From a bacterium (GTDB lineage: Bacteria > Patescibacteriota > Minisyncoccia > Phycocordibacterales > Phycocordibacteraceae): DNA of 48,056 bases. How positions within the stretch are numbered: position 1 is the first letter of the stretch; every line of letters begins with the position of its first letter. Below, piece by piece: positions 7,031 through 7,283 of the stretch. The translations under genes were made by a program, and so were the position numbers. The notes beneath the pieces are model-generated. The model did no database searches, was not told the DNA's origin, and saw only the letters and a program-made list of their open reading frames with translations. The stretch spans positions 1-48,056 of the forward strand of contig JAKAKH010000013.1 in NCBI GenBank assembly GCA_021824605.1. Direction: 5' to 3'.

Positions 7031-7176
7031 TGGCGGGCCCACCAGGACCACGATTACATTTATCGATCCTTACAGGATCAGTATACCTTGTGGGGATTTT
7101 GCTCCAGGTATTCGCAAAATCCGCTCACAAGGTTTTCGATTCCTGGGCGTGAAGCCTCCCAGGCTTCACTTGGCTC
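7031..7176 (-). ncRNA. 146-nt tRNA-Trp-cognate tRNA-like structured RNA ending in GCCA (alternatively the 3' part of a T-loop intervening sequence plus 3' exon)
   Basis: Minus-strand layout: GAGCCA-A-[GUGAAGCC UGGGA GGCUUCAC]-GC-CCAGG-AAUCGAAAA-[19/17-nt-arm hairpin]-UAUACU-[GAUCCU GUA AGGAUC]-GAUAA...GG-U-CCUGG-UGGGCCC-G-CCA. The last 15 nt before CA duplicate the tRNA-Trp 3' end. It is homologous to 24397-24542, with the same length and compensatory changes. Confidence 0.6.
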
Positions 7177-7181
7177 GTCAC

Positions 7182-7208
7182 GCAAAAATCGCCCGAAGGC
7201 GATTTTGC
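7182..7208 (-). terminator. Terminator-like hairpin between tRNA-Trp and the tRNA-like RNA
   Basis: On the minus strand: GCAAAAUCGCC-UUCG-GGCGAUUUUUGC (A-tract, GC stem, UUCG loop, U-tract). It could terminate transcription or act only as a structural spacer. Confidence 0.4.
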
Positions 7209-7212
7209 AGTG

Positions 7213-7283
7213 CGGGCCCACCAGGAATCGAACCTGGACTGTCGGTTTTGGAGACCGATGTACTACCACTATACGATGGACCC
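7213..7283 (-). tRNA. trnW: tRNA-Trp (anticodon CCA), 71 nt, no encoded CCA
   Basis: Hand-folded cloverleaf: GGGTCCA/TGGGCCC acceptor (one G-U), GTAT/GTAC D-stem, TCGGT-CTCCAAA-ACCGA anticodon arm, CCAGG-TTCGATT-CCTGG T-arm, discriminator G. Confidence 0.9.

Follow-up and report, generated by a model that had tools for sequence, protein, structure and literature searches.

The tRNA-Trp and tRNA-Gln genes of the window, the stretch of 48,056 nt that was analysed, are each followed by a structured module that carries both a direct and an inverted copy of the 3' end of its own tRNA. The modules belong to a large CPR family for which no published description was found and which has no match in Rfam. 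As judged by comparison with an orthologous locus, the Trp module is shown to have been inherited vertically with compensatory changes, and the same comparison indicates that it is probably under selection at its locus. We propose tentatively, at somewhat less than even probability and from sequence comparison and predicted folds, that the module is transcribed with its own tRNA and acts on it in cis as a 3'-trailer RNA.

tRNA genes and modules of the window

ARAGORN and Rfam place three tRNA genes in the window: tRNA-Trp(CCA) at 7283-7213 on the minus strand (71 nt to the discriminator; Rfam tRNA 65.3 bits), tRNA-Gln(TTG) at 24299-24369 on the plus strand, and tRNA-Leu(CAA) at 11337-11257 on the minus strand. 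CCA is encoded in none of the three, and the discriminator is followed by CAC in the Trp gene and by CAA in the Gln and Leu genes. The 15-mer TCCTGGTGGGCCCGC occurs exactly twice in the window, both times at the tRNA-Trp locus (7226-7212 and 7047-7033), and the 15-mer TCCTAGTCTCCCAGC occurs exactly twice at the tRNA-Gln locus (24356-24370 and 24526-24540); by simple arithmetic, ~1e-4 such occurrences are expected by chance. At both loci CA follows the second copy to give GCCA (7031-7047; 24526-24542), and the order is the same, namely the tRNA, a hairpin, and a 146-nt segment ending in the 15-nt copy of the tRNA 3' end and CA. The two segments share an exact 24-mer, TACTGATCCTGTAAGGATCGATAA, and an exact 17-mer, AGGAATCGAAAACCTTG, neither of which is found elsewhere in the window, and their cores are 72.2% identical. 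The preliminary description of this DNA had reported a complete 71-nt tRNA-Trp without encoded CCA, an exact second copy of its last 15 nt continuing as GCCA, a CCA in both elements and in none of the ordinary tRNA genes, and a homolog behind tRNA-Gln with partner strands retuned to that tRNA, all of which were confirmed. That the segment is derived from, and cognate to, the adjoining tRNA is supported by the exact copies at the two loci.

In the Trp module (minus strand throughout), the tRNA region that is copied, L (7212-7232), comprises the T-loop, the T-stem 3' strand, the acceptor 3' strand, the discriminator, and C74, and it recurs downstream both inverted (R) and direct (L'). Hairpin 1 (7182-7208), GCAAAAUCGCC-UUCG-GGCGAUUUUUGC, looks by eye like a terminator; it forms the centre of the palindrome L-hairpin-R and is not kept in the orthologous locus L112. 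The first part of the inverted copy, R1 (7171-7179), is a decayed complement of the acceptor 3' strand and discriminator (6/8 pairs) that reads GACGAGCCA, while the perfect complement would be CGGGCCCA, which is what L112 and L001 carry. It is followed by the P2 hairpin (7149-7169), seen in the fold, whose 7-nt loop CUGGGAG recurs in many family members, and by R2 (7135-7146), CCAGGAAUCGAA, the exact reverse complement of the tRNA stretch UUCGAUUCCUGG formed by the T-loop and the T-stem 3' strand. R2 is the 5' strand of helix P3, the 3' strand of which is the UCCUGG of L'. Between these two strands lie P4 (7086-7132), a long hairpin whose tip, GAAUACCUGGA, is conserved and which is supported by the covariance-model alignment, by covariation, and by compensatory changes relative to L112; the J4/5 junction UAUACU (7080-7085; family consensus UGUACU); P5 (7065-7079), GAUCC-UGUAA-GGAUC, which covaries; and P6 (7050-7059), AUG-UAAU-CGU, a small hairpin that some copies lack and that separates GAU from the T-stem 3' copy. 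L' (7031-7047) itself is the direct 15-nt copy of tRNA-Trp from U60 to C74, followed by CA.

The Gln module on the plus strand has the same parts. Its hairpin 1 (24371-24394) has an imperfect stem and is not followed by a U-run, R1 (24395-24402), UGUGGAGA, is complementary to UCUCCCA with one bulged U, and P2 (24405-24421) again folds with the loop CUGGGAG. The conserved core, including the T-stem 3' copy (24425-24531), matches the covariance model with 91.3 bits and contains R2 (24425-24436), P4 (24439-24485), the junction UGUACU (24486-24491), P5 (24492-24506), and P6 (24512-24523); L' with its CA (24526-24542) completes the module. At the tRNA-Leu locus (11207-11265, minus strand), the tRNA 3' end is followed by a terminator-like hairpin 1 and by UGCCGGGG, an R1-like inverted copy of the tRNA-Leu acceptor 3' strand and discriminator, directly after which comes the stop codon of a convergent ORF. 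The covariance model gives no match at this locus, and a full module is present at L063 and L072, which are orthologous to it. The tRNA-Leu locus is a remnant or minimal form of the module.

Fold and covariation

Both 146-nt segments of the window fold far better than shuffled sequences (z -4.5 and -8.2), which, together with the family-wide covariation, bears out the strong structure suggested at first. Their folds contain the hairpin with the CUGGGAG loop, a CCAGG/CCUGG or CUAGG/CCUAG helix, and internal hairpins. With the covariance model 125 copies were found. All six helices covary: 90.3% of cells are paired, compared with 70.9% after shuffling, and both-sided changes occur at 27 of the 28 pairs. 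The observed values were reached by none of 500 shuffles, and slide controls collapse. The P5 stem and its closing pair covary also in the copies without the motif used for searching; in diverged copies the P5 loop is GUA, closed by U-A or C-G. Three unpaired motifs are invariant: GAARA, UGUACU, and the GUA triloop. The ~85 nt of hairpins that had been described as taking the place of the T-loop are fairly described as such, but P4, UGUACU, P5, and P6 are the conserved heart of the family and not a filler.

The tRNA-sense strand gives the better fold in 60 of 75 copies; its folds contain 134 G-U pairs and those of the antisense strand 65, and the helices defined by the model contain 102 G-U pairs versus 71 A-C mismatches. 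This excess is modest (1.4 to 2 fold) and far below what is expected of classic structured RNAs, and a structure of single-stranded DNA fits almost equally well. Folding with purines and pyrimidines only, as another route to the comparison of G-U with A-C, was discarded as too noisy.

A family linked to tRNA genes

The family is present in at least 120 metagenome contigs and in two CPR genome assemblies. A tRNA on the same strand ends 90-260 nt upstream of 72 of the 126 copies, with 19 anticodons represented, and the direct repeat begins at tRNA nucleotide 60 in nearly all copies. Other tRNA genes do carry cognate copies with covarying helices, which the preliminary description had set out as the point to be checked with a covariance model. 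The conserved unit is ~180 nt long and starts directly after tRNA position 74. It consists of hairpin 1; R1 and R2, which together are an inverted copy of the last ~21 nt of the tRNA split by P2; a junction with P4, UGUACU, P5 with the GUA triloop and, in some copies, P6; and L', which repeats the T-loop and T-stem 3' strand in direct orientation, in some copies together with the acceptor strand, and whose pairing with R2 closes the junction. The same P4 subfamilies are found behind different tRNA types. About 30% of the bystander tRNA genes on the same contigs have a module or a remnant, and therefore the module is not essential for tRNA genes in general.

At the gathering threshold, Rfam reports only the three real tRNAs in the whole window and has no match for the 146-nt segment. 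When the E-value was relaxed to 10 or less at the Trp locus, the tRNA appeared together with low-scoring matches attributable to chance, which fell on the tRNA, on hairpin 1, and in one case (E = 7.7) on the 5' half of the segment, and no tRNA-family match was obtained for the segment itself; such scans of the Trp locus and of a copy at L023 (E-values up to 10 or 5) returned tRNAs and chance matches only. The view that this is not a recognised class of RNA has held up in these searches, and no description of the module was found in the published literature on tRNA-like RNAs, structured RNAs, or repeats of CPR/Patescibacteria. An origin from phages was considered and rejected: an exact 21-mer of the module is absent from IMG/VR, a degenerate P5 pattern hit 44 viral loci of which the covariance model confirmed none, and in cultured phages blastn matched the tRNA-Trp part only.

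Inheritance at the Trp locus

The core of the window's Trp module is 85.7% identical to that of the orthologous locus L112, and the tRNAs are identical at 68 of 71 positions by a count from the alignment, while the protein encoded next to the locus is only 60.7% identical to its counterpart. Flanking spacers and hairpin 1 are not conserved between the two loci. In the stems the differences are paired, compensatory changes, and the loops are unchanged. L112 has lost five bases of the acceptor strand by deletion, and its core is nevertheless conserved at 86%. Since the core is better conserved than the neighbouring protein (86% versus 61%) and its stems change in a compensatory manner, selection in place is suggested. 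No polymorphism for the presence or absence of the module was seen among the near-identical loci compared, whereas the same tRNA does show such polymorphism for an island of ~665 nt.

Neighbouring genes and islands

No integrase or recombinase gene lies beside the copies in the window, and no recurrent one lies near the other copies of the family. Clustering of 1149 ORFs from all loci, in search of a recurrent neighbouring enzyme, returned only housekeeping genes at conserved positions, which by Pfam include RuvA, a SpoU-family methylase, and UPF0102, and a family of HTH proteins encoded upstream of tRNAs, the distribution of which does not follow that of the module. The DNA found between tRNA and module at L041, L079, L024, and L121 was considered as possible cargo, and hence as evidence for a cassette or island, and was rejected, since it is a separate island inserted after ...GGGATCAC of tRNA-Glu. 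These islands have their own short repeat, L039 represents the 'empty' form, and the serine recombinases of L041 and L079 belong to these separate islands.

Acceptor strand and CCA

According to the preliminary description the segment can fold as an autonomous acceptor/T-stem minihelix with a 3' GCCA, and as a definition of the family this finds no support. The acceptor 3' strand of L' agrees with that of the tRNA at all compared positions in only 14 of 56 distinct tRNA-adjoining copies (one of the 14, L097, is cut by a contig end). CCA follows the repeat in only ~4 copies, among them both copies of the window; C-A-A is far commoner, and it is the usual trailer of tRNA genes in these contigs, with or without a module. 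Where the acceptor strand of the element differs from that of the tRNA, R1 complements the 3' end and discriminator of the upstream tRNA in 29 cases and the element's own 3' end in 5. The terminal helix and the T-stem helix are indeed seen in the folds, but the acceptor-like pairing is weak in the minimum free energy structures, with ~4 pairs in Trp and 5-7 pairs with a bulge in Gln. Likewise, the 5' partner strands attributed to the element are present but amount to one inverted copy of the last ~21 nt of the tRNA. This copy, R, includes complements of the T-loop, the discriminator, and C74, and therefore pairs at least as well with the real tRNA.

Transcription and a possible role in cis

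The hairpin behind tRNA-Trp, described earlier as terminator-like, has a G+C-rich core followed by UUUUU, but a simple terminator scan calls hairpin 1 at neither the Trp nor the Gln locus. In most copies of the family hairpin 1 has the full look of an intrinsic terminator, with an A-tract, a G+C-rich stem, and a U-tract, and ends 0-3 nt before R1; in these copies, therefore, the module would be made only by read-through. Hairpin 1 of the window Trp copy arguably belongs with these, but hairpin 1 is not terminator-like at the Gln locus, L112, L097, and L069, where co-transcription is possible. No promoter-like site was found between tRNA and module at the Trp and Gln loci, and the promoter of the next gene lies directly after L'. 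A leader or riboswitch for the downstream gene was rejected as an explanation, since the genes 3' of the module are unrelated and often convergent and the next promoter comes after the module.

When the tRNA and module of each of the two loci are folded as one full transcript, the 3' third of the tRNA pairs with R and the 5' acceptor strand of the tRNA with L' (z -7.0 and -10.9). These models show that two alternative pairing registers are available. The favoured scheme, at somewhat less than even probability, is that the module is a structured 3'-trailer domain, transcribed with its own tRNA or by read-through from it, and retained by selection at each locus. By complementarity, R may act in the precursor as a clamp, antisense to the 3' third of the tRNA, with L' and the 5' strand of P5 as a built-in decoy for R. 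A read-through precursor could thus adopt two folds. In one of them the tRNA would stand beside a closed module, the module would be freed by cleavage of RNase Z type at N73/C74, and copies with an acceptor-like helix could be a substrate of RNase P; in the other, a long hairpin of L, hairpin 1, and R would hide the tRNA 3' end. An insertion or a duplication at the 3' end of tRNA genes probably gave rise to the module, which would have spread to further tRNA genes in ancient times. The wider proposition, that many CPR tRNA genes carry a cognate cis-RNA which steers precursor folding, 3'-end maturation, or turnover by strand exchange, is speculative, and we consider it unlikely as it stands. 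A DNA counterpart, in which a built-in guide of ~20 nt would lead a mobile element to the 3' ends of tRNA genes, would be just as novel.

Alternative explanations

The tandem, nested, and truncated units and the partial duplications of tRNAs are typical of mobile or repetitive DNA and count against a cis-acting RNA. The main alternative, although somewhat unlikely, is that the module is non-autonomous mobile DNA which moves as folded single-stranded DNA, similar to REPINs mobilised by RAYT or to ends of IS200/IS605 type. Insertion would take place right after C74, R would be a DNA guide of ~20 nt pairing with L of the target and with L' at the right end, hairpin 1, P2, P4, and P5 would be recognised by protein, and R would stay in step with the local tRNA through template switching in the palindrome. 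The boundaries of the unit are sharp, with the start after C74 and the end at C74 of L', and tandem units ~181 nt apart repeat the L'-hairpin-R layout. Such an element would also suit the copies that adjoin duplicated 5' parts of tRNAs, the P4 subfamilies common to different tRNA types, the patchy presence among tRNA genes, the match of R to the tRNA rather than to L', the near parity of G-U and A-C counts, and the terminator that usually lies between tRNA and module. At L079 there is in addition one gene for a Y1 (IS200-like) transposase (PF01797, 1.6e-19) ~420 nt from a tandem pair. However, the inverted repeats that flank this sole Y1 gene are of another kind, and no transposase or recombinase is consistently near the copies; by tblastn no homolog of the Y1 gene was found in the window or in the other loci compared with it. 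No difference in the presence of the module was found among close relatives, and nothing similar was found in the viral collections. Moreover, copies within a genome are 72% identical versus 86% for orthologs, which have locus-specific compensatory changes, and this points to selection at each locus and not to turnover from a master copy. An improbable explanation is the scar of an integrated element, in which a crossover in the T-loop gave the tRNA a new 3' end, the old one (L') was left as attR, and the core is the surviving end of the element. As at classic integration sites in tRNA genes, the direct repeat extends from the T-loop to the 3' end; the decay of L' proceeds from its 3' side, the flanks diverge right after L', and other islands, two of them with large serine recombinases, integrate at the same tRNA-Glu 3' end. 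These islands, however, sit between the tRNA and hairpin 1 with their own short repeats and represent separate events, no integrase is linked to the module, and six covarying helices with 86% identity across divergent genomes are not expected of a scar, which would also leave the inverted copy R unexplained.

That the element is an autonomous tRNA mimic of ~146 nt, whose acceptor/T-stem minihelix and encoded CCA are handled by RNase P, the CCA-adding enzyme, or the cognate synthetase, is very improbable. In its favour, L' is complete, with GCCA, in both copies of the window, a terminal helix forms when the segments are folded in isolation, P2 branches off where a tRNA has its D and anticodon arms, and acceptor pairing is perfect in a few other copies (L025 and L042). 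As an account of the family this is opposed by the rarity of both the intact acceptor strand and the CCA, by an imperfect R1 in most of the 14 copies with that strand intact, by the short acceptor-like helix of the window Trp copy, and by L112, which kept its core after losing part of the acceptor strand. Of the tRNA types behind which the module occurs, most (Glu, Gln, Arg, Lys, Trp, and Pro) depend on the anticodon for charging, which also speaks against such a mimic. Least probable of all is a palindrome that works only at the level of DNA or of termination, such as a bidirectional terminator, an insulator, or a protein-binding array, and gives no specific RNA product. The terminator-like hairpin 1 of most copies, with its A- and U-tract flanks, would fit, as would the tRNA-Leu locus of the window, which keeps just the hairpin and R1, and the position of the next promoter directly after L'. 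Hairpin 1, however, is the least conserved part between orthologs, and termination requires neither the unpaired motifs GAARA, UGUACU, and the GUA triloop nor the long-range P3 helix.

Comparison with known systems

The copy of the tRNA 3' part from the T-loop downstream of an intact tRNA and the exact 15-nt repeats resemble attL/attR of islands and prophages that integrate into tRNA genes, and tRNA 3' ends in these contigs are demonstrable landing sites of islands. In contrast to such sites, the module is only ~180 nt long, has no integrase, and includes an inverted tRNA copy and a covarying core of several helices, which is conserved and vertically inherited rather than decaying. With REPIN/RAYT systems and IS200/IS605 ends the module has in common that it is a small, extragenic, hairpin-rich, non-coding unit near terminators with covarying stems, tandem and nested layouts, and internal sequence complementary to the flanking target. 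It differs from them in the length of the complementarity, which is ~20 nt and tRNA-specific as opposed to ~4 nt, in that no cognate Y1 transposase was found in the loci compared, the one case at L079 looking unrelated, and in copies that are diverged within a genome and conserved locus by locus.

In the tRNA-like domain of tmRNA, YrlA, mascRNA, and viral 3' structures, as in the module, helices resembling the acceptor and T-stems are formed from distant segments with a foreign domain between them, and a CCA follows in a few of the module copies. However, the insertion of the module is in the T-loop, of which nothing is left, its acceptor helix and CCA are not conserved, and its helices copy the neighbouring tRNA; apart from the real tRNA, Rfam gives no match to tmRNA, mascRNA, or others. 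Neither ARAGORN nor Rfam finds a tmRNA in the window, and the module has no T-loop and no tag frame. YrlA and bacterial Y RNAs differ further in that a junction takes the place of the T-loop in the module, and T-box riboswitches, likewise without an Rfam match, in that the module lies downstream of a tRNA and is followed by unrelated, often convergent genes. The earlier statement that tmRNA, YrlA, and T-box do not fit is thus borne out. For hammerhead, twister, pistol, hatchet, and HDV-like ribozymes there was no Rfam match at E-values up to 10, and a hammerhead reading of CUGAU...GAAA was dismissed by eye because the strand order of the junction is wrong and G8 and A9 are absent.

The 3'ETS-leuZ sRNA sponge of E. 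coli is a functional 3' external transcribed spacer of a tRNA. By analogy, a conserved functional RNA could come from the trailer of a tRNA transcript, although the module has no apparent pairing target beyond its own tRNA, is far more elaborate, and occurs behind many tRNAs. Hairpin 1 with its A-tract, G+C-rich stem, and U-tract directly after the tRNA is, in most copies, similar to the intrinsic (bidirectional) terminators of tRNA operons, but in the module the stem extends into the acceptor strand of the tRNA, ~130 nt of conserved structure follow, and hairpin 1 is replaceable.

CPR genomes are tiny, and yet about one third of the other tRNA genes in the sampled contigs have the module or a remnant, and each full module adds ~180 nt of conserved structure matched to the tRNA it follows. 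Should it act as an RNA, it would represent a new class of regulator or maturation device linked to tRNAs, testable in cultivated Saccharibacteria, and a natural case of a two-state strand-exchange RNA that looks designed. If it acts as DNA, the guide by which such a mobile element reaches the ends of tRNA genes would be unusually long and reprogrammable, and the element would bear on the understanding, and possibly the engineering, of site-specific insertion. Current annotation pipelines assign nothing to the module regions, and the search for tRNA genes and for integration sites can be misled by the partial tRNA copies.

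Repeated tRNA 3' ends in the window

The last 15 nt of tRNA-Trp(CCA) (7283-7213, minus strand) through C74, TCCTGGTGGGCCCGC, occur once more in the window, at 7047-7033, and the equivalent 15 nt of tRNA-Gln(TTG) (24299-24369, plus strand) recur once, at 24526-24540; each downstream copy is directly followed by CA. The segments behind the two tRNAs are identical over one 24-mer and one 17-mer, both unique to them within the window, and fold far more stably than shuffled sequences (z -4.5 and -8.2). The repeats are real, and a chance origin is excluded. The preliminary description had reported the second tRNA-Trp end, its homolog behind tRNA-Gln and the lack of CCA in the ordinary tRNA genes, and all of this holds: CCA is encoded by none (0/3) of the window tRNA genes found by ARAGORN and Rfam, the third being tRNA-Leu(CAA) (11337-11257, minus strand). 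Nor had any described RNA class been recognised; in Rfam the downstream segments match no family at the gathering threshold, and only chance matches appear up to an E-value of 10. Behind tRNA-Leu only the first hairpin after the tRNA (hairpin 1) and UGCCGGGG remain, and a convergent gene's stop codon comes next; at the orthologous loci L063 and L072 the module is complete.

Anatomy and covariation of the module

Along the tRNA strand (5' to 3'), the first part of the unit, directly behind C74, is hairpin 1. R1 comes second and is complementary to the acceptor 3' strand, discriminator and C74. Next come A/G-A-G, hairpin P2 (loop often CUGGGAG), C-G-N, and R2, made up of the T-stem 5' strand and AAUCGAA, an exact match in complement to the T-loop and T-stem 3' strand together. 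Hairpin P4, UGUACU, P5 (GAUCC-UGUAA-GGAUC) and GAU follow, then a small hairpin, P6, in one subtype only, which includes both window copies. The unit ends in L', a direct copy of the T-stem 3' strand that in some units goes on through the acceptor strand, discriminator and C74; L' pairs with R2 as P3. These boundaries are confirmed by the tandem units in L079, which lie ~181 nt apart. Together, R1 and R2 therefore make up one inverted copy of tRNA nt 54-74, which P2 interrupts at the acceptor/T-stem junction; the J3/4 'GAA' is a piece of this copy that stays unpaired because its partner in L' is taken by the P5 5' strand.

The covariance-model search suggested in the preliminary description was productive. 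The model, built on the module core, gives scores of 101.8 and 91.3 bits to the two copies in the window and matches nothing more there; across 100 sources it detects 125 copies, of which 30 lack the exact search motif. In its alignment 90.3% of cells are paired as compared to 70.9% after shuffling, and both sides have changed in 27 of 28 pairs; these values were reached by no shuffle, and the signal was lost when the partners were slid. The P5 stem is free to vary in diverged copies, where the first and last bases of its loop change together, from U...A to C...G; therefore, the loop is a GUA triloop. The unpaired motifs GAARA, UGUACU (more exactly N-R-U-A-C-N), GUA and GAU are invariant. The structure is backed by covariation.

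In L112, L097 and L069 the place of hairpin 1 is taken by a hairpin module whose loop reads (A)AACG(C/G)AGUGA(U/G)A, and this hairpin also forms the P4 tip of the window Gln module (24460-24478), which suggests modular exchange or a common binding motif.

Distribution and linkage to tRNA genes

The module family is widespread, and no description of it was found in Rfam or in the searchable literature. A strict two-motif pattern matched two genome assemblies, one of Saccharibacteria and one of Kaiserbacteria, and the 21-mer ACTGATCCTGTAAGGATCGAT is present in at least 120 metagenome contigs, with no occurrence in IMG/VR. Among the matches listed, a same-strand tRNA ends 90-260 nt upstream in 72 of 126 copies, and these tRNAs represent 19 anticodons. 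The repeat of the tRNA 3' end nearly always starts at nt 60; the homology really begins at G52 (GGaTCGATTCC in the element, GGtTCGATTCC in the tRNA). Of the bystander tRNAs on the same contigs, only 19/63 have a covariance-model match or an R1-like repeat, the latter being expected at random in 2.5%.

The acceptor strand and CCA

The preliminary description had proposed that the segment can fold as an autonomous acceptor/T-stem minihelix with an encoded CCA. Its account of the parts was largely right; its functional picture, a self-standing mimic that ends in CCA, does not correspond to the conserved features of the family. Among 56 distinct tRNA-adjacent copies, the acceptor part of L' equals that of the tRNA in only 14 (including L097, cut by a contig end), and R1 is imperfect in most of these. 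Where L' differs from the tRNA at ≥2 of 8 positions, R1 complements the upstream tRNA better in 29 cases and L' better in 5, its fit to the tRNA often being 8/8, discriminator included. The central point, an acceptor helix of the element's own, is not conserved, and CCA follows L' in 4 copies only. The window copies belong to the minority with a complete L'; their R1 strands are decayed (6/8 for Trp; 7/8 with a bulge for Gln). A self-contained minihelix with CCA is therefore possible in the window, but selection does not preserve it.

The commonest tRNA gene trailer on these contigs is C-A-A, module or no module. In the window and the compared loci L001-L122, most tRNA genes encode C74 and not CCA; C-A-A or C-A-N mostly follows the discriminator (CAA in 60/124), and CCA is encoded in only 6/124.

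Possible trailer RNA or mobile element

At the orthologous Trp locus L112, which has a syntenic flanking gene (60.7% amino-acid identity), tRNA-Trp is identical to that of the window at 68 of 71 positions in pairwise alignment. The module core is 85.7% identical between the two loci, compared to 72.2% between the window Trp and Gln cores. Substitutions in P2, P4 and P6 are paired with loops unchanged, the L112 L' has lost 5 nt of its acceptor strand, and hairpin 1 and the spacer upstream of the tRNA are unrelated. Among near-identical loci no module is present in one and absent in another. Given this core identity, the paired changes and the lack of such polymorphism, the modules are old residents, maintained at each locus separately.

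We tentatively favour, at somewhat under even odds, a selected, co-transcribed, structured trailer RNA that acts on its own tRNA. In 60 of 75 copies the sense (tRNA) strand is the better folder, and its folds hold twice as many G-U pairs as the antisense ones; not every form of hairpin 1 is a terminator, and stems that covary around conserved loops also fit RNA. The topology is that of a tRNA in which P2 replaces the D and anticodon arms. On the other side, most copies have as hairpin 1 a textbook terminator abutting R1, the promoter scan found no promoter-like site between tRNA and module at the window loci, and the excess of G-U over A-C in model-defined helices is only 102 to 71. The whole tRNA-plus-module transcript has a domain-swapped minimum-energy fold in both loci (z -7.0 and -10.9), in which R (R1 plus R2) is paired, by way of hairpin 1, with the tRNA 3' third, and L' with the tRNA 5' acceptor strand; in the alternative register the same strands form the tRNA cloverleaf and a closed module. 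Since the two registers compete for the same strands, a 'clamp and decoy' model is conceivable, in which the module would act in cis by the choice between them.

The main rival, which is less probable, is a mobile element that carries a guide and moves in single-stranded DNA form; several traits are signs of a repetitive or mobile past. Units occur in tandem (L079, L121, L044, L056, L016), a P2-P4-P5 unit is nested in another module in L008 and L055, L092 holds a truncated copy, flanks often diverge immediately 3' of a truncated L', and the P4 subfamilies are not confined to single tRNA types. One subtype has an intact tRNA-Arg or tRNA-Cys downstream of its P2-P4-P5 core (L065 minus strand, L052, L017, L023, L003/L010), and the core is preceded by an exact or decayed duplicate of the tRNA 5' part; the L065 duplicate is exactly tRNA nt 1-53, starting exactly at nt 1, and those of L017, L023 and L003 are shorter. 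Among neighbouring genes no recombinase or transposase is consistently linked to the modules. L079 has a Y1 (IS200-like or RAYT-like) transposase gene (5231-5950, PF01797, E = 1.6e-19) ~420 nt from the tandem pair, inside an island between tRNA-Glu and module; its flanking 20-nt inverted repeats (95% complementary) differ from the module. The remaining probability is split between an integration scar, a mimic of the autonomous kind, and a role solely at the DNA level or in termination.

Adjacent sequences

One of the upstream tRNA 5' duplicates scores as a weak tRNA in Rfam (22.3 bits). Promoter-like sequences for the next gene begin directly after L': TTGAGA-17-TAGTAT behind Gln (24545-24573, plus strand) was called by the promoter scan, which found no promoter-like site on the minus strand at 7000-7030 behind Trp, despite TTGAC(G/A) followed by a TAGT(G/A)T-like motif, conserved between the window and L112.

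At tRNA-Glu, islands are inserted exactly after ...GGGATCAC (C74), between tRNA and hairpin 1 (L041 1819-9230; L079 1855-6250; L024/L085, ~665 nt; L121, ~900 nt; L006, ~160 nt), each ending in a short imperfect tRNA-end copy, GGGTCAC or GGCTCAC. The ~665-nt island is polymorphic among near-identical loci, and those of L041 and L079 encode proteins that, from their N-terminal sequence, look like putative large serine recombinases.

A family of ~225-aa proteins combines a transposase-like HTH at the N-terminus with a LAGLIDADG-looking motif in the centre (LYWAEGSK or LYIGEGD): L018 9882-10562, L008 852-1523, L016 2431-3117, L024 2892-3587, L025 6468-7148, L067 4534-~5220, L113 4384-5049, and L114 3990-4760 and 6040-6702. 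Pfam, NCBIfam and PDB give only a weak HTH match, and no tRNA repeats flank the ORF. In 10 loci a tRNA gene in the same orientation follows 6-40 nt after the end of the ORF or overlaps it, and the ORF co-occurs with a downstream module only about half the time.

A near-perfect palindrome of ~70 nt per arm (L002 5880-6024) contains CCTTTTCGATTCCTC and GAGGAATCGAAAAGG, a T-loop-like motif in both orientations; it adjoins a module that has no adjacent tRNA and is flanked by direct repeats CTTTGAGAYYTTTGTGCCCCTGCGAGGAATCGAAA. L079 has three tandem 82-nt units, each with GGGTTGGRTCAC. In each of two repeats upstream of tRNA-Trp in a Saccharibacteria assembly (L001 1-178), the first ~10 nt of the tRNA are copied (TCGGGCCTGTA) and followed by a hairpin and TGCATGCTCCTCGTTCGG; the repeats may belong to another family of small elements, one copying the tRNA 5' end.
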